From Malacoraja senta (taxonomy: Eukaryota), in assembly GCA_038087875.1 (NCBI GenBank), contig CM075988.1:26290001-26354000 (forward strand): a stretch of 64,000 nt of DNA, read 5' to 3'. Shown here one piece after another: positions 4,501 through 64,000 of this stretch (positions within the stretch are counted from its first letter, which is position 1; each line of letters starts with the position of its first letter). The translations under genes were made by a program, and so were the position numbers. The notes beneath the pieces were generated by a model. It ran no database searches and had not been told where the DNA came from. It saw only the letters and a list, made by a program, of their open reading frames with translations.

Positions 4501-4606
4501 ATTAATGTCCCAACACTAGTAACTCCTCCGCATGGTCTATACAGCCCTGACAACTATCCCATGGAGTGGTGATGAAAAGTATACACGGTACTCTAAGTGA
4601 CGACAT

Positions 4607-5270
4607 GCTGGAGTAACTCAGCGGGTCAGGCAGCATCTGTGGAGAACATGGATAGGTGACGTTTCACAGAGTGCTGGAGTAACTCAGCGGGTCAGGCAGC
4701 ATCTGTGGAGAACATGGATAGGTGACGTTTCACAGAGTGCTGGAGTAACTCAGCGGGTCAGGCAGCATCTGTGGAGAACATGGATAGGTGACGTTTCACA
4801 GAGTGCTGGAGTAACTCAGCGGGTCAGGCAGCATCTGTGGAGCGAAGGAAATGGGCAACCTTTCGGGCCGAAACCCTGAAGGAAATAGGCAATGTTTCGG
4901 GCCGAAACCCGGAAGGGTTTCGGGCCGAAACGTTGCCTATTTCCTTCGCTCCATAGATGCTGCCGGAACATGGATAGGTGACGTTTCACAGAGTGCTGGA
5001 GTAACTCAGCGGGTCAGGCAGCATCTGTGGAGAACATGGATAGGTGACGTTTCACAGAGTGCTGGAGTAACTCAGCGGGTCAGGCAGCATCTGTGGAGAA
5101 CATGGATAGGTGACGTTTCACAGAGTGCTGGAGTAACTCATCGGGTCAGGCAGCATCTGTGGAGAACATGGATAGGTGACGTTTCACAGAGTGCTGGAGT
5201 AACTCAGCGGGTCAGGCAGCATCTGTGGAGAACATGGATAGTGATGTTTCAGGTCGGGATGCTTCTTCAT
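4607..5270 (-). repeat. Same 66-bp tandem array, inverted (about 7.5 copies), interrupted at about 4841-4964 by a palindromic piece of a sister subfamily
   Basis: Reverse complement of the unit at 100-362; 22-aa periodicity in ORF 4851-5288. Confidence 0.9.
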
Positions 5271-5592
5271 ACACAGTACTCTACCTGAGGCTCAATACAG
5301 ATCCAACATGGCCTCCGTGGCCATATTCTGCAACTCAGCCAATACAAATGTTCTTAAAGTTTGTTGTTTTCTCAGATTTTTTTTAAACAATTAACAATTT
5401 AAAATTTGTCATAATTTTGAATGATTTTAAGTATCTCTTGCTCAGCCGAATAATTTAGGACCGAGGGATTTTCAGAGTCAGAGAAGACTGTCAGCTGCCA
5501 ATGTTTTCATGGGCACTCTGTGGGGCAGTGTTCAGCAGGTCTGTGGACACTCTGCCACCATTCAGCTCCAATTCAGCACACAGGCTAGCACA

Positions 5593-5865
5593 GGGGTGGC
5601 ACAGCAGTAGAGTTGCTGCCTAACAACGCCAGAGACTCGGGTTCGATCCTGACCACGGGTGCTGTCTATACTGAGTTTGTACGTTCTCCCTGTGACCACA
5701 TGGGTTTTCTCCGGGTGCTCCGGTTTCCTCCCACACTCCAAAAACGTACAGGTTTGTAGGTTAATTGGCTTCGGTAAAATTGTAAATTGTAAATAAGTGT
5801 AGGATGGTGTGCGGACTTAATGGGCCAAAAAGTCTGTTTCCACCTTGTATCTCTAAGGTCTAAAT
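5593..5865 (+). mobile_element. HE1 (tRNA-derived V-SINE)
   Basis: A/B-box head (ggtggcacagcagtag, gggttcgatcc), V-domain gggttttctccgggtgctccggtttcctcccacac, CR1-like tail. Confidence 0.85.
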
Positions 5866-6869
5866 CCTAAAGGCCTTCCACATCTGGCACAGGTAAGTAT
5901 TGTCCGCGGGTATTTCAGACAGTGTGCAGCCACCAACAAGTTCAGCTCCACTCTAATCACGTCATTGGATCTAACTGCCCAAACCGGCTCCTTGTGTTGC
6001 TGTGCTCACCTGACATCATGATCTATTATGTTTAATCTTCTCTTGCTCAATACCACAGAGTATTTCTGCCACTGTGGGAGAGGAGACTATCATTGTACCT
6101 TCTCAGGCCATGATCTAAAATAAACTCGACACCCTTCACAAACAGACAAAACTCACCAAGCCTTGGTTCATTTCTCACCCCCACCCGTGTTTCAGCTTTC
6201 CAGACTGACATAGTCTCACACTCCCAGTCTGTGCTGGATGTGCAGTAACCACCCCATGTTCAATAACATGGCCAGAAGCTGCACTAATATAGGTCAGTGT
6301 CCAAGTATCACACCTGCCCAACATCAGCAGAACACCCTGTGATATTTATTGAAGAAGGGTCTCGACCCGAAACATCACCCATTCCTTTTCTCCAGAGATG
6401 CTGCCTGTCCCGCTGAGTTACTCCAGCATTTTGTGTCTATCTTTGATTTAAACCAGCATCTGCAGTTCTTTCCCATGCTATTTATTTACTTACTGCCCTC
6501 CGGTCAAAAATAGGCCATTTGATTTGAGACACAAGACAGGTGTACATAATCCACAGTTTCCACCACATTGAGGACAGTTCTTTCTATTCCATTTCTTTGT
6601 CAATTGGTTTTGTTTGATTAATAATTTAGTGCTTAATTGATTGAATTACAACAAGACAGGTGAGCTGGTTGAGTAAACTAACAAGTTGATGAGCTTACCT
6701 TGCACTAAACGTTATTCCCTTATCATGTATCTATACACTGTAAATGGCTTGATTGTAATCATGTATTATCTTTCCTCTGACGGTATAGCACGCAACAAAA
6801 GCTTTTAACTGTATCTCGGAAAGTTAGTTCATTGAATGAACACATTCTCTGTGAGTTGACTCTGTGAGT

Positions 6870-6960
6870 CTGAAGAAGGGTTTCGGCCCGAAACGTTGCC
6901 TATTTCCTTCGCTCCATAGATGCTGTTGCACCCGCTGAGTTTCTCCAGCATTTTTGTGTA
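6870..6960 (+). mobile_element. 91-bp Penelope-derived non-autonomous element with intact hammerhead-like core
   Basis: CTGAAGAAGGGTTTCGGCCCGAAACGTT at 6870-6897; flanked by 15-bp direct repeat ctctgtgagttgact (6847-6861, 6962-6976). Confidence 0.8.
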
Positions 6961-7164
6961 CCTCTGTGAGTTGACTATTGGCCACCATTTGATGGAACCA
7001 TGGTCATGGCATGAATGGATTCATGTCACCACCAACTAGTTTTAAGATTATTGTTGTCCTATTCTCAGCTGCCCTTTGTTAATAGCGCAACCTGGAGTTG
7101 ATTTTTAACAATAGTATTTTTAAGTAACAGTTGCTGGTAAGTGAACAGACTTTTCACATTTTTA

Positions 7165-7342
7165 AGAAAGAACTGCAGATGCTGGAAAACTTGAAGGTAG
7201 ACACAAAATGCTGGAGAAACTCAGCGGGTGAGGCAGCATCTGTGGAGAGAAGGAAGGGTCTCGACCCGAAACGTCGCCTATTCTTTCTCTCCATAGATGC
7301 TGCCTCACCTGCCGAGTTTCTCCAGCATTTTGTGTCTACCTT
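7165..7342. mobile_element. Palindromic (inverted dyad) Penelope pLTR-derived element
   Basis: aaggtagacacaaaatgctggagaaactcagcgggtgaggcagcatctgtggagaga is mirrored by tctctccatagatgctgcctcacc...tttgtgtctacctt, around gggtctcgacccgaaacgtc. Confidence 0.8.
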
Positions 7343-8296: not shown

Positions 8297-8601
8297 TTAT
8301 TTTAGAGATACAGCACAGAAACAGGCCCTTCGGCCCGCCAAGTCCATGCCGACCAGCGATCCCCATACACTAGTACAATTCTACACACTAGGGTCAATTT
8401 GCAATATTTACTGAAGCCAATTAGCCTACAAACCAGTACGTCTTTGGAGCGTGGGAGGAAACCGGAGCGCCCAGAGAAAACCCACGCAGGTCACGGGGAG
8501 AACGTACAAACTCCGTACAGACAGCACCCGTAGTCAGGATTGAACCCGGGTCTCTGGCACTGTAAGACAATAACTCTATCCGCTGCCCCACTGTGCCGCC
8601 C
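8297..8601 (-). mobile_element. HE1 SINE
   Basis: Full-length reverse copy. Confidence 0.88.
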
Positions 8602-9384
8602 TCATTGATGCAAGTTCCTTTCTCGACTAAAGCGGACACCGTAGCGAGCAGTGGCTTCCTACACATTTAGTGTCTATTCAGCAGAACGAGGTCCTTTTTC
8701 AGCAAAGTAAAATCATTGCACACTGTACGCAAAAAAGTTATAGTTGCGACTCGTTTTTAAATATTGATTACATAAAATAAAATGCACTACTTTGACCTTG
8801 TATATAATATAGAAAGTGCAAGCATGTTTATCTTGAGTTTAAATCATGACAAAATATTTTTTAAATTGATGCATGATTGACCCACTGTGTTTGTTTTAGG
8901 CAGTTACGTTTTGCAACTGCTGTAAAGTGAACTCTCTCTGCAGCCAACATATAAGTGGACTGTTGTGCTTTTGTTATCTCTGTGGAGTGGGAGTGTGAGA
9001 GTGAAACTGAGATGCCTCTTTGTTTGACTAACAGGGAAATGGAATTGAGAAGATACTGAAAGGACAGACGTGGCAGGTAAAATCTCTCCGGAATGGGGCT
9101 TTTCTAGTTTTGGAAATATGGCAGGGAGTTTTTCGTGGTTATGGATCAACAAGGAAACACAAAAGTGGACATTGGGTGTGGAAAGAAGTCGCAGCCTCTT
9201 TGTTTTAAATTTTTTATTGAAGTTTCAAAGGTGTGCAGTAGTGTTGTGATTGGCCAGTCCTCCATGCATTGGGCTTGTGAGGAGTTGCACTTTGTACATT
9301 TCATTCAAAGTTACAGCTAGTTATTGTGGATTGAGGCAGCATTTGAATAGTGTCTTTCAAAAGTTAATGCATTGGCCAACCATA

Positions 9385-9600
9385 GACTCGGTGACCGTTT
9401 GGTCTGGCAAGACTTGCCAGATCTCTGTTGCTGACCATTTTAACTCCCCTTCCCATTCCCACGCTGACCGTACTGTCCTGGGCCTCCTCCATTGTCAGAG
9501 TGAGGCAACACACACAAACCGGAGTAACAGCACCTCCTGTTCCACTTGGACAGCTTACAACCCAATGGTATGATAATTCAATGCCCAATTGTAAGTAACT
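9385..9600 (+). mobile_element. Penelope-like retroelement, GIY-YIG endonuclease C-terminal fragment
   Basis: VADHFNSPSHSHAD.TVLGLLHCQSEAT, then frameshifted QHLLFHLDSLQPNGM; followed by a CT-rich 3' region. Confidence 0.8.
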
Positions 9601-9651
9601 TCTAACAACCCCGTCCCCTGAGCCCCACCTGGACTTGTACCTATTTCTCCA

Positions 9652-9682
<31 letters not shown>

Positions 9683-9732
9683 CTTCCACCTACATTCCTT
9701 TTCCTGGTTTAACAATTCACAACTCTTCAATC

Positions 9733-9823
9733 CTGAAGAAGGGTTTCGGCCCGAAACGTTACCTATTTCCTTCGCTCCATAGATGCTGCTGCACCCGCTG
9801 AGTTTCTCCAGCATTTTTGTGTA
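9733..9823 (+). mobile_element. 91-bp Penelope-derived element with intact hammerhead-like core
   Basis: Same motif at 9733-9760; direct repeat tcttcaatcct (9724-9734, 9824-9834). Confidence 0.8.
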
Positions 9824-11315
9824 TCTTCAATCCTTTTGTCTGCGTGCTGTTTTTAAATCTCTGGCCCTTGTCCAACCATCTGCCTATCAACACCCCCTTC
9901 ACCTGTAGTCACCTATTGCCTTCCATGCTTCGTCCGCCAAGCCTAATCCCCCCCACACCCCCCCCCCCCACACACAATCAATATGAAGATTAGCATTGTG
10001 TCTTTTTTCAATGTGTTGCCATTTTTCGTGTAAATTTCTAGGATGGGATTGGGGGGTGGAGGGGTTGGTGTAGTGGGGGGGGGGGGGAGTGGCCATTTTA
10101 GGGAAGTCCCTTTAGCAAGGTCAATGGAATTCCAATCAGTGATTTTGAATGTTCAGTCACTGATGGTCACACTGACAATGGTTTTTCTCTTTGGACTCTG
10201 AAGTGCATGTTTCTGGACCCAGGGAGTTCATGACCGCAGGCCCTGTTGTTCAGGGGATGAAAACTGCACGGACACCATGGCACGTTCATGTTGACCCTGG
10301 TCTTGGTCCTAGAAAGAGGTGGTACGTCAGGAGACTTTGTGCATCATTTACTGTTATATCTACTCTTTGAGGGAACTAATTGACTGATGTCAATGTACCA
10401 CTCTAGCTTGGCTATCCAAACTTTACCCATTATATTATTATTCCTTTGACCTTTCCAGTCCAGTTGAATCTGATTCCACTTTCTTTCCAGATCAAAACAA
10501 CCTCTTAAATAATCTCCTTTCCACCAATTATCTTCATTCTGAGCCCTCTGGTTACCTGTCCTGTTGCCTATGGAAATATTGTTTTGGTCAACAGTTTGGA
10601 GACTGCTGCTAATTCCAGCAGATCTGTATGCCACTCCATATGCTGGTGTTAGACGTACAGTTAAATGATTCAGTGGCTCCAGATACCACAGCGTCTAGAA
10701 CTATCAGTGTGTCTACTGACAGCCTTGGACAATAGGAGTAGGCCATTTGGCCCTTCGAGCCAGCACCGCCATTCAATGTGATCATGGACTTGAAATGTGA
10801 CGCTGTTTTCACTGAATCAAATAAGGGAAAAAAACTATTAATGTTTCGTGGGACTTGAGTGGAAAGGTGTCGGGCAACATGTAGATGGACAACAGTGAGA
10901 GAGTCAGAACCAAAGGGGAAGTGGTGGTGCAGCATGGAGTCTTCAGCTCCACTGGATGAGTGCTGGGTCCAGGGCGATAATATCCGGTTGAGTCTGGTTT
11001 GTGTTTTGACAATGTATAGCAGTGTTAACCCTTGCACCGCTGTTACTGATAGAGGGGGTGGGGAGAAAGACACAGTGCTGGAGTAACTTAGTGGGTTAAG
11101 CAGCATCTCTGGAAACCATGGAAAGATGATCGCTCAGGTCGGAACCCTTTTTCAGACTCTGAAGGAGGGTCCTAGCTTGAAACGTCACATGCCCATGTTC
11201 TCCAGAAATGCAGCCTGACCTGCTGAGTTACTCCAGCACTTTGTGTCTCCAGCATCTGCAGTCCCCTGTGTCTCCATGTCACTGAGAGGCCCTGCTCACT
11301 CTGAGAACAACACTG

Positions 11316-11619
11316 GGGCAGCACATTGGTGCAGCAATAGAGCTGCTGCCTCACAGCGCCAGAGACCCAGGTTCGATCCTGACTACGGGTGCTGTCTGTG
11401 TGGAGTTTGTATGTTCTCCCCGTGACATGCAAGGATTTTCTCCGGGTGCTCTAGTTTCTTCCCACATTTAAAGACCTAAGATTTGTAGGTTAATTGGCTT
11501 CGGTAAAAATTGTAAAATTGTCCCTGGTGTGTAGGATAGTGCTAGTGTACGGGGATCGCTGGTCGGCATGGACTTGGTGGGCCGATGGGCCTGTTTCTGT
11601 GCTGTATCTCTAAACTAAA
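11316..11619 (+). mobile_element. HE1 SINE
   Basis: Full-length; ends ctgtatctctaaactaaa. Confidence 0.88.
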
Positions 11620-12315: not shown

Positions 12316-13318
12316 GATGGTTGAAAGCTTCAAGTTCCTCAGTGTAAATATCACCAGCAACGTATCCTTGACCAGCCGTATCTGCAGTTGGTCAAGGAGA
12401 CCTGCGGCCTACACCAACTTGGTGGGGAGGCACCGATTCAGGACTTACCTGGACTTTTTACCTTGTCTGCACATCTGGATGCCCGCAGCGGCAGCTGCGG
12501 AGGGTTGGGGTCCCGACCACGGGGGAAAATGGAGGAGGACTGGCCAATTTTTGTGCCTTCCACCACTGTGGTGGATGTTTGTGTAAAATGTTTTAATTGT
12601 GTTTTTGTGTGTTCTTTAGCATTGTACCGCTGCTGGCAAATTCATTTCACTTCCACTTTATGTGCAATGTGACGAATAAAACTGATTGTGCTTGTGATTG
12701 TATCGAAACAATGACCAAGAAAACACACCAATGCCTCTACTTTTTTAGAAGGTTTAGTAAGTTCGGCATGTTCCCAACAACCCTCACCAACTTCTACAGA
12801 TGCGCTGTAGAAAATATTTTATCGGGTTGCATCACAGCAAGGTTTGGGAACAGCTCACTACCAGACCGCAATAAATTGCAGAGATTGTGGATGCAGCCCA
12901 GACCATCACACAAACCAACTCCCATACATCGATTCCATCTACACCTCATGCTGTCTCGGCAAGGCCACCAACATAATCAAGGACCAGTCTCACTCCAGTC
13001 ACTCCCTCTTCTCCCCTCTCCCATCAGGCAAGAGGTACAGAAGTGTGAAAACGCACACCTCCAGATTCAGGGACAGTTTCTTCCCAGTTATCAGTCAACT
13101 GAACCATCCTATCACCAACTAGAGTGCGGTCCTGAACTACTGTCTACCTCATTGGAGACCCTCGGACTGTCTTTAATCAGACTTTACTGGATTTTAACAT
13201 ACCAAACATTATTCCCTTTATCCTGTATCTTTACACTGTAGACAGCTTGATTGGAATCATGTATAGTCTTTCCACTGACTGGATAGCACGAAACAAAAAA
13301 AGCCTTTCACTGTACCTT
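12316..13318 (+). mobile_element. Rex1/Babar LINE 3' fragment, with a nested element of about 320 bp at about 12383-12699
   Basis: VESFKFL.VNI; KKTHQCLYFFRR..LTNFYRCAVENILSGCITA; HSLFSPLPSGKRYRS..RFRDSFFP. Confidence 0.85.
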
Positions 13319-14338
13319 ACACGTGACAGTAAACTGAAATATTTCAGATTTCCTTAATTTGCCATATTTTCCATGTTATTTCTTCCTTTATGTCTTGTCC
13401 TTACATACACTAATCTGCTATTCCTTGGCGAGCATGTAACTCGCCAATACAATTCTATTTCATTCTATTTTAAGCATCATTTCCCTGGGCAGTCACTTAG
13501 AGGAGTCACTTCCCCGGTGGTCAGATGATCAATACCTTCTGCAGTTGTAATGGCCAAAAGTTCGTTCTGAACACTCTTTATAAACACAGGATCAGTCCTC
13601 TGACACTTTAATGCAGCCCTCTGTGAGGTTGTGTCGTCTTTTTCTTCACCCATCATAGAAACATAGAAAATAGGTGCAGGAGTAGGCCATTTGGTCCTTC
13701 GACCATTCAATATGATCATGGCTGATCTTTCAGAATCAGTACCCCGTTCCTCCATTCTGTTAGCCCTAAGAGCTATATCCAACTCTCTCTTGAGCACATC
13801 ATCATCCAAGAACTGCTTGAGGGAGAAAATCTGAGTTTATCAGCATGCAGGAAGGTTGGTGAATGGAAATGATTCCAAAGCCTCAACACATTCCATGATG
13901 TCTTGGTGATAAATGCAGATGTGGTGGCAGGCAGCACAGTTGTTACGTGTGTGTTGAGGTGAATGTTATTGACCACAGCACAGTGAAGGAAGCAGGAACA
14001 ACTAACTACCACATTACAAATTCTCCCACCTTTTAAATAAAAAACCTACTTCCTGGTGGCGAGTTTATTTGTGGAGACACAAACTGCCTTTGCAGTTTAA
14101 CAACGACAGACACAACATGCTGGAGTAACTCAGCCACTCAGGCAGCATCTGTGGAGAAAAGGAATAGGTGATGTTTCAGGTGGAGACCCTTCTTCAGACT
14201 GAGTCAGGGAGGGGGATACTGGAATGATGGGAATGTACAGAACAGCCTACCTCCGCGCATATAGGGTTGTCTTGACTTAAATACATTATTTCTGCAGCTT
14301 TGGCTACCATTTCTATTACTAATTATATGCACAAATTG

Positions 14339-14895: not shown

Positions 14896-60136
<45,241 letters not shown>

Positions 60137-62091: not shown

Positions 62092-62909
62092 TCGATTATT
62101 GTAAGATCTGTCCATGATGTATTTTTCCGATGCATTGAACCATTGTAAACCATGTTCATTTTAGTTGTATCTAGACCCACCCCATCGCAACGGATGATCC
62201 AAATTCTACAAGAAAATACCCTCCCCCACAGAGCTGGTTCAGCTGGAGAGAATGATTCAAATACTCGAGACTAGATTGAAATGTGTTTATTTAATTTGTG
62301 ACAGATTCTCAGTATAAAATAAATCTATTACCAGCATACAAAATTAAATATAATCTAGAATGTCAATCCTTTATACATTAGCAAAACATGCATAGTTTGT
62401 ATTTGGCATCTAAATCAAAAATAGGCAATGCATACTTCATTGAAAGAGAGTTTGAGAATCACAGTTACCTGATGACTACCATTACCATGTTGAACCATTC
62501 CTTGCTGCAGTGTGTCAGTCACGAGAGGGGACCTCGCACTCCGCTACGCGCAGGAGTTAAAGAAGGTGGGGTGGGGAGAAAGGACCAAGAGGGGATGTAG
62601 GCTAGGCTTATTGAAATATCAATGTGGTAAAGTGCTGGAAACAGGATGAAGGAAGGAGCTGCAGATGCACCATAGACACAAAATGCTGGAGTAACTCAGT
62701 GGGTCAGGCAGCAACTCTGGAGAAAAGGAATAGGTGACATTTCGAGTCACCTATCCTGAAGAAGGGTTTTGACCCAAAACGTCACCTATTCCTTTTCTCC
62801 AGAGATGCTGCCTGACCCACTGACTCTAACGTCTTGTGTGCTTTGGGCAGCTGTACCATCTCATTCAAGTGACCTGCATTAATCATTTATTGGTCAACAA
62901 AGAGGAATA

Positions 62910-63615
62910 TCAGGGGTTCAGGCAGCATCTATGGAGGGAAATGGATAGACAATGTTTTGTATCAGGACCCTTCATGACGTGAGGGGGATAACTGGTAAAA
63001 GGGAGAGGGGGAAGGGTCAGGCAAGACCTGGCAATGATGGCTGGATCCAGTTCAGGAGAGGATGGTTGGCAGATACATTGGGTGGGGAGGGAAGGATGCA
63101 AATGGACACAATAGCTGATGATACATGGTGATGACATCAGGCTGCAGATGTAGAATCTGATGGAGAGGCGAGGAGTGCAATGTGGCAGCGGGTGGGGGAG
63201 GCGGGGGTGATAGGTTACAGGGAAGGAGGAGAAGGGGACATGGAGATAGAGTGGGTGGATGATGAGTAAAAGGAGGGACTAGGAATGGGGAGAGTGGAAA
63301 GAGAAGTGTATGTAATTCAGGAGAAGGGGTGGATTCAATCTGAAACTGGACAATTCAATGTTCATGATGTTGGGTTGTGGACCACCCAAGCGGGATATGA
63401 GGTGCTGTTCTTCCAGATTACATGTGGCCTCGCCCTGGTAGTGGGAGAGGCTGAGGACAGACGGGCCGAATGGGGAATGGAATGGAAGTGGTAAGCAACT
63501 GGGAGCTCAGGCTGACCCTAGTGGACAGAGCAGTAGTGTTCAATGGATCTGTTGCCTACACCACACCTGGTGTCACTGATGTGGAGGAGACCACATTGAC
63601 AGCACTGAATGCAGT
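62910..63615 (-). mobile_element. Degenerate Penelope-like element: GIY-YIG domain, 3' region and pLTR
   Basis: Minus strand CIQCCQCGLLHISDTRCGVGNRSIEH (decayed GIY-YIG), LEEQHLISRLGGPQPNIMNIE, then a degenerate gaagggtcc..aaaacattg unit in the same sense. Confidence 0.75.
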
Positions 63616-64000
63616 GGTCAAGGATTATAAATAGACACACTAAATGCTGGAGTAACTCAGCGGGACAGGCAGCGTCTCTGGAGAGAAGGAACGGGTGATG
63701 TTTCGGGTCGAGACCCTTCTTCAGACTGGATTCAGGATTATGAATGCAGATTTCCATTGGCTGTGTTTATGCTCATATAATTTGAGATACATGGACAGCG
63801 CCAGGGTGTGTCTCCCCCTCTCTCTCCCCCTGGACTCATGGGCTGATGAAGCAGGTAATTCCCCATCTGGTTCTTTCAAAGGATCTGGGAGTGATTTGCT
63901 GGGATCCCCAGGTATGGTCACCTCTGGAGACTTGGGAAGGAAGGACAAGATGTGAAGGTGAGATCCATCAGCAAACCTGTTGGCTGCAGACACTCGTTTC

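Follow-up and report, generated by a model that had tools for sequence, protein, structure and literature searches.

Three nearly identical 91-nt units that open with the letters of a minimal hammerhead ribozyme occur in the 64,000-nt stretch of Malacoraja senta DNA analysed here (below, the window). They raise the question of what kind of mobile element the unit is, and whether its ends are set by the ribozyme or by another step in its propagation. The first-pass annotation had read it as a recently active, non-autonomous Penelope derivative of SINE size that starts exactly at the ribozyme core. Unit positions are counted below with the C of CUGA as +1, and statements on published systems refer to the accessible parts of the cited papers.

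The copies at 9733-9823 and 24971-25061 are identical and the one at 6870-6960 departs from them at unit positions 29 and 57, which agrees with the reported limit of 2 differences in 91. The direct repeats of 15 bp and 11 bp that had been noted beside copies 1 (6870) and 2 (9733) are both present, but copy 3 (24971), for which none had been claimed, has a target duplication as well. Beside copy 1 there is a 5-nt filler (6862-6866) repeating target sequence. Copy 2 lies within an older Penelope-like remnant, in its 3′ UTR; the head of this copy overlaps its own duplication by 2 nt, and in copy 3 the left duplication copy coincides with the head. A contig of run X5 aligns up to 24979, so the first 13 nt of the copy 3 head double as the left duplication copy. 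Beside each of the young copies the 3′ flank looks like the beginning of the tail described below, which fits priming aided by a few matching bases. The analysis also supported the proposal that the unit is non-coding.

Sites in related organisms were read from contigs of runs X1 (organism A), X3 (organism B), X5 (organism D) and X18 over the region 24420-25250. The first three are the larger runs, and X18 is probably DNA. In X3 and X5 about 90-93 nt are missing at the site of copy 3. One X3 contig holds 49 letters against 139 in the window, and one X5 contig skips 126 nt with 33 letters in between; the X5 contig 5′ flank shows 34 differences from the window in about 540 letters. The insertion is therefore absent from the orthologous site in two related organisms and is young, in support of the recent activity that had been claimed. 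The contigs of X1 (organism A) cover the region up to 25092, and the comparison of sites rests on X3 and X5.

A search with an nhmmer profile built from ten window copies gave 47 hits, which merged into 27 loci making up 6.1% of the window, or about one locus per 2.4 kb. The earlier count of about 20 copies was thus too low. In each of the larger runs 48,000-75,000 contigs match the family, a figure that is not a copy number. The shared 3′ end at 91 nt is real but is one of two, as other family members continue into a further tail of about 35 nt, which was present on 14 of 35 arms. Among the six places listed per run for loose contig ends, with subfamilies pooled at 85% identity, 3′ ends at 25062 and 25066 run into the tail consensus.

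Four simple head-to-head pairs were found, each with the tail on exactly one arm; a nested complex at 4850-4970 was left out of this count. The two arms match at 57/61, 57/65, 45/57 and 39/40 positions in the four pairs. One common duplication encloses the pair in two of the four cases, with 14 bp (1 mismatch) around the pair at 7170 and 11 bp (1 mismatch) around that at 28338. Opposite-strand joints from −2 to +32 and from −2 to +34 were seen in contigs of three of the four runs. Across the family the duplications measure 11-17 bp, and a duplication score of at least 9 was reached at 12 of 26 loci versus 5% of 400 random position pairs.

A sister subfamily had been described from four heads, all of which are found at their places, but none is intact. 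Those at 6349 (+), 63724 (−) and 23506 (−) carry CA in place of CG in the palindrome, the first of them also without C3, and the arm at 7250 is without CUGA. A derived subfamily has one head followed by near-identical 66-bp tandem units, which start at GAAAC and contain neither CUGA nor stem II. The complex at 4850-4970 sits within a 66-bp array. It is an inverted insertion of young type in which head fragments are duplicated, and a 15-bp duplication with 1 mismatch brackets the whole. The tailed copy at 53063-53174 (−) has lost about +18..+32, and with it the predicted cut site, through an internal deletion; the duplication of this copy extends over the initial bases of its head. Weak matches to the unit body at 28851-28902 (−) and 42185-42239 (−) may be older, more distant subfamilies.

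Features of the window: copies of the 91-nt unit and its family, Penelope-like remnants and a separate dispersed repeat.
Feature	Position	Strand	Remarks
Young solo unit, copy 1	6867..6960	+	Start −3, without tail
Copy 1 plus target duplication	6847..6976	.	15 bp exact, 6847-6861 / 6962-6976
Young solo unit, copy 2	9733..9823	+	11-bp duplication 9724-9734 / 9824-9834
Young solo unit, copy 3	24967..25061	+	13-bp duplication 24967-24979 / 25062-25074, 11/13 identical
Predicted minimal type I hammerhead	24969..25000	+	Descriptor match; predicted cut after 24998
Young-type copy with ~35-nt 3′ tail	23383..23510	−	
Young-type tailed copy	35765..35851	−	Start +32, 16-bp duplication
Head-to-head pair	7170..7341	.	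Tailed arm from ~+29..+35, tail-less arm from ~+3..+6
Head-to-head pair	28338..28528	.	Full-head tail-less arm and tailed arm from +31
Head-to-head pair	11065..11265	.	Two nearly full heads, one arm tailed
Head-to-head pair	62655..62823	.	Tailed arm from +16
Sister-subfamily solo copy, tailed, core decayed	6349..6470	+	
Sister-subfamily solo copy, tail-less	63631..63728	−	12-bp duplication (1 mismatch)
Sister copy retaining ~14 nt of upstream sequence	14100..14215	−	Upstream sequence shared with the 787-941 minus copy
66-bp tandem derivative loci	83-365; 4600-5272; 24243-24403	+; −; +	Unit numbers differ
Broken GIY-YIG endonuclease remnant of Penelope-like element	63342..63622	−	Stop and frameshift
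Pyrimidine-rich 3′ UTR, then diverged head and body	62910..63340	−	
Second GIY-YIG remnant and pyrimidine-rich UTR	9265..9990	+	Endonuclease 9265-9600; short head-like stub near 9975-9990
SINE-sized dispersed repeat copies	5586-5736, 8414-8578, 11316-11466, 20763-20935, 25252-25438, 29010-29160, 51988-52138		

A descriptor consisting of CUGANGA, an optional extra nucleotide, a 4-bp stem II, GAAA, a 2-nt palindrome and UH matched three places in the window and none in 60 Markov-resampled windows. When 20 heads were taken one by one, only the three young copies passed, and the other 17 had lesions or indels, a common one being CG to CA in the palindrome. The match at 24969 is predicted to consist of a 2-bp stem I, CUGAAGA, an extra A, a 4-bp stem II, GAAA, the palindrome ACGU and UU. 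The equivalent cuts are predicted after 6897 in copy 1 and after 9760 in copy 2. The minimal type I architecture that had been proposed was supported by the extra nucleotide after A9, G10.1-C11.1 and a palindromic 15.2-16.2. That extra A, which had been given as a caveat, is a published hallmark of the minimal hammerheads of Penelope-like elements, or PLEs (PMC4209133). Helix I is 2, 0 and 2 bp long in the young copies and helix II is 4 bp, against 4-5 bp and 7-8 bp in the families of S. mansoni (PMC4209133). A helix I of 2 bp has been reported in the variant hammerhead of D. virilis (PMC4209133). Position 17 is U in the young subfamily, which differs from the motifs of that paper.

A search of the window with Rfam covariance models to E 1 gave 20 matches, and one of 24900-25120 to E 10 gave two, none of them to a hammerhead. 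Matches to microRNA families near 7200 and 28400 lie on inverted pairs and were rejected. Stem II pairing had been described as maintained while the letters vary. In 23 aligned rows, a two-sided change was found in 0 of 4 pairs, and the covariation score was 0.252 versus a shuffled mean of 0.253. Covariation was rejected as an argument for the stem. The RNAalifold consensus had 0 pairs, and nine single folds gave z from −1.35 to +1.35 with no stable consensus fold; two young copies folded (z +0.57 and −0.15) no better than shuffles. The predicted probability of stem II was below 0.01 in 45-nt young RNAs, 0.07 in a 36-nt young RNA and 0.84-0.98 in a 33-nt sister RNA. For a dimer that pairs in stem II and in the ACGU helix but not in stem I, the computed energy was −13.3 kcal/mol versus −28.8 kcal/mol for the best cofold. 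On these folding models the hammerhead appears to be disfavoured in the young copies. The short stem I and the U at position 17 likewise speak against activity as free RNA.

Core conservation gave a divided result. Counted on 18 of 23 aligned copies, which are not independent of each other and exclude five with incomplete or diverged heads, the core has 14/198 changes against 51/233 at +29..+45 and 21/72 in loop II (p 8e-6). Across subfamilies the core is better conserved than the loop, but it is no better conserved than the downstream body (61/708), and the core without G12 (10/180) gives p 0.22 against the body.

We then determined where the copies begin. Of 35 arms placed by automated alignment, 16 have their start at −5..+3 (p 3e-8 in a binomial comparison with uniform), 10 at +4..+16, 5 at +27..+36 and 4 further upstream. 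The 5′ ends are therefore clustered and not random, as had been predicted. Correction by eye showed that the head of the copy at 53172 (−) is full but internally deleted, and so brings the first bin to 17 and the +27..+36 bin to 4. The copy at 4910 (−) had been scored on its neighbour's head, which left its bin unchanged, and that at 62975 (−) had been scored +6 yet carries the entire UTR. Among the six listed places, contig 5′ loose ends fall at −4 and −2 in X1, X3 and X5 and at −4 and −3 in X18. Those at −4 have a short C-rich upstream consensus, and those at −2 or −3 have long mixed flanks.

These results show that the unit begins at or slightly ahead of the 5′ strand of stem I. An exact start at CUGA holds for copy 2 (+1) only, as homology reaches −3 in copy 1 and −4 in copy 3. 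The idea that the ribozyme core sets the start was not upheld, given that the cluster spans −5..+3 and the predicted cut, after +28, is internal. Since this cut lies inside the unit, cleavage would set neither unit end, and intact copies would derive from uncut or rejoined RNA. Ribozyme cleavage was accordingly rejected as the source of the main 5′ end. At the start of the unit, the copies that extend upstream have TCAG(T/A), an initiator-like motif. A splice acceptor just 5′ of the head, suggested by a pyrimidine tract and CAG, was set aside, as a shared upstream exon was not seen.

A smaller group of arms, 4 of 18, starts at +27..+32, at or just past the predicted cut, which is not significant in the window (p 0.07). 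Together with the contig joints at +32 and +34, these starts could reflect cut RNA that served as template. They could also come from stalling at a competing hairpin, or from microhomology that the head shares with a run of pyrimidines at +30..+41.

The link to a Penelope-like element that had been proposed was supported by the remnant at 63342-63622. Behind it lies a UTR of 365 nt with 73% C+T. The head and body that come next share 71-78% identity with family copies, and this arrangement ties the family to the 3′ end of the element. The position behind a frame with reverse transcriptase (RT) and GIY-YIG domains holds for the family as a whole, the endonuclease-linked head being of an older subfamily and not the young one. 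In tblastn the endonuclease part of a little-skate protein matched 63342-63622 (E 7.5e-16) and 9418-9504 (E 7e-11). The best protein match of an endonuclease fragment from the window was to a gene model of the little skate, with 72% identity across 62% of the 47 query residues, and further matches came from sharks and a ray, which suggests a skate-like cartilaginous fish as host. The protein P0002 is a chimera whose whole-length search was dominated by LINE reverse transcriptases, and residues 138-236 were used instead. Pfam gave no match for either short endonuclease fragment.

A zebra-shark PLE protein model reads through the UTR and ends in SLMKGLRPKRQ about 126 codons past the endonuclease. 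Translated heads of the window include a ten-letter stretch and SLKKGLDPKH that resemble this end. The zebra-shark model was alone in such an ending among 156 PLE-like proteins scanned. The relatives carry RT, a Cys linker and GIY-YIG; the linker was found before GIY-YIG in 4 of the 5 relatives first examined, by pattern only, and the window itself holds only endonuclease and thumb-region remnants. This linker is a mark of Neptune and Nematis (PMC8557442; PMC3846280), so that Neptune or Nematis is the probable clade judging from the relatives. The 91-bp unit matches the terminal repeat (pLTR) of a PLE, probably one of Neptune type, from hammerhead to priming site.

The family also shows the optional tail, the inverted 5′-truncated copy and the variable-length target duplications that characterise PLEs. 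In these elements an inverted 5′-truncated copy stands at the 5′ end, and a tail of 30-40 bp is often confined to one of the two ends (PMC8557442). PLEs have expanded in the introns of the whale shark (PMC6155905, PMC8848866, 10.1101/443036). Exact-pattern scans of viral and metagenome contigs gave 0 matches to the unit. A third Penelope-like remnant, at 15345-15503 (+), corresponds to the region between RT and endonuclease, with no head downstream up to 16300.

We consider, with a probability of roughly 0.55, that the solo copies are short by-product cDNAs of the parent element's own reverse transcriptase. The steps proposed here draw on the ends of the copies and on biochemistry from the anole. 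Transcription of the element would start at the putative initiator TCAGT, about 3 nt ahead of CUGA. The GIY-YIG domain would nick the target, and the RT would prime within the RNA at about +91 or about +125, with a few matching bases helping. Priming in the 5′ repeat would leave a template of about 95-130 nt, from which the cDNA would run off at the RNA 5′ end and be joined to the target by a short filler or through microhomology. The head-to-head pairs would result when both target strands are primed, and priming in the 3′ repeat would give the rarer copies that reach into UTR and ORF. The hammerhead would be carried along uncut, cutting only as a dimer or with the help of a protein.

Published promoters are compatible in location: the Adineta pLTR contains one that has an Inr-like motif (PMC3846280), and that of the D. 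virilis PLE is internal (PMC2377424). Several observations speak against the by-product reading. A full-length parent with the diagnostic bases of the young subfamily was not seen in the window, and none of the four full-head young copies keeps upstream UTR. The boundary is not a single base, with 10 of 35 arms starting at +4..+16, and the 66-bp tandem form at three loci shows that altered forms spread.

The main rival, which is the reading of the first-pass annotation, is an independent SINE-like derivative. Here an internal polymerase II promoter, or read-through, would provide transcripts of the solo units, and PLE protein would re-mobilise them in trans. The very high density of the family, the lack of upstream UTR in the full-head young copies and the recurrence of the tandem form would all suit it, and pLTRs are sufficient as cis elements for mobilisation in trans (PMC3846280). 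On the other hand, polymerase III A and B boxes, searched for as patterns, were absent in or near all three copies scanned, and Rfam found no SINE head derived from tRNA, 7SL or 5S in the window. Read-through copies should often carry host flank, whereas the duplications abut the head within a few bases at most of the 12 scored loci. Both unit ends can moreover be explained without a separate master, as they match what an autonomous PLE would leave. We regard this explanation as doubtful, though a serious one.

A variant of the by-product reading divides the cDNAs into two classes, in which skate-like genomes would preserve a dense record of the Penelope cycle. The first and larger class would run off at the RNA start, just ahead of the hammerhead, and the minor class at +27..+34, often the tailed arm of a pair, would be copied from hammerhead-cut RNA; the unit of about 95 nt, with overlapping promoter, ribozyme and priming site, would then be a minimal self-propagating Penelope parasite. 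This is speculative and, in our estimate, improbable. If true, template use of hammerhead-cut Penelope RNA would be seen in vivo for the first time, through the +27..+34 class.

Ordinary 5′ truncation, in which long transcripts are primed in their 3′ repeat and the RT stalls at the ribozyme region, is somewhat less credible than the SINE-like form. It would account for the upstream-extended copies (4 of 35, plus 62975 with its entire UTR), and for the C-rich, UTR-like consensus of the −4 loose ends in all four runs, among the listed places; most single minimal hammerheads have indeed been interpreted as truncated PLEs (PMC4209133). A stall is expected 3′ of a structure, however, and the main cluster lies at or beyond the 5′ edge, with the whole motif already copied, in a region whose predicted folding, as given above, does not exceed that of shuffled sequence. 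A non-LTR retrozyme, a tandem repeat that self-cleaves into circularising monomers reinserted by rolling-circle reverse transcription, is very improbable: head-to-tail joints do occur (25063 to 24971 in X1 and X3, 25056-25058 to 24965-24970 in X5, 1-3 contigs each) and animal retrozymes have been proposed as PLE derivatives (10.64898/2026.07.22.740005), but none of the tandem arrays in the window has hammerheads in all its units, the 66-bp arrays being devoid of CUGA and stem II, the unit ends are fixed and not circularly permuted, and the motif is minimal and not canonical.

The kind of element found here is already known, as minimal hammerheads in Penelope repeats have been described since 2014; the motif is not new and the unit is no new system. 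The hammerheads of metazoan PLE pLTRs likewise lack helix III and have a palindromic 15.2-16.2, an extra nucleotide after A9 and G10.1-C11.1 (PMC4209133). They too are mostly single and dispersed, with some opposite-strand pairs, and in fishes they were reported in Xena, Poseidon and Neptune. Two supplements of that paper, other than file 1, contained no term for cartilaginous fishes.

Poseidon_Ac of the green anole is similar in that an optional tail is delimited by two internal priming sites, with a hammerhead about 100 nt upstream of them (PMC11167929). Both target strands are nicked and extended there, uncut RNA is the template in vitro, and the ribozyme requires protein (PMC11167929). In the anole no RNA-seq reads were found that had either end at the cut site, according to the accessible text of the same paper, and solo copies with a sharp 5′ end are not discussed in that text. 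The ORF of Poseidon_Ac starts at stem II (PMC11167929), whereas the unit has no start codon there and its relatives are Neptune-like. A later ATG frame of the unit closes in sister copies, as judged by eye.

Penelope of Adineta vaga has an inverted truncated pLTR, solo pLTRs, an optional 31-bp tail, an Inr-like motif, 8-10-bp duplications and microhomology at 5′ junctions, as our family or its proposed pathway would have (PMC3846280). Its pLTRs are about 200 bp long and of very low copy number, while the unit is about 95-130 bp and dense. Animal non-LTR retrozymes share with the unit a non-coding nature, a type I hammerhead and a relation to pLTRs (PMC7229834; 10.64898/2026.07.22.740005). They differ in being tandem, with mostly canonical ribozymes and circular RNA, against a dispersed, minimal unit with fixed ends. 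PLE-derived retrozymes include a chondrichthyan case (10.64898/2026.07.22.740005). In the papers searched we found no description of the skate family, which may well be catalogued in Repbase or Dfam already. An abundant, recently active and sharp-ended family such as this one bears on the in vivo role of these hammerheads and on the origin of inverted and tailed insertions.

The window contains several other features. At 53804-56494 (−) an open frame of 896 residues encodes RT and APE endonuclease domains; upstream of it, the frame at 56752-57177 (−) has a GDSL esterase domain. Together they form a fairly intact LINE, probably of the CR1/L2 group. Related LINE 3′ pieces lie at about 22115-22638, 25911-27148, 33047-34103 and 46631-47358. 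An open frame at 12597-13241 (+) matches ALKBH8_N (E 5e-5) and is probably a LINE 3′ fragment. Two minisatellite arrays with 48-bp units were found at 29828-30211 and 30559-30798, and a low-complexity array with 8-12-bp units at about 41700-42200. A separate family of dispersed repeats, at least 150 bp long, is SINE-like in size. A piece of a trypsin-family domain at 58680-59177 (+; E 1e-13) is probably an exon of a host serine protease.
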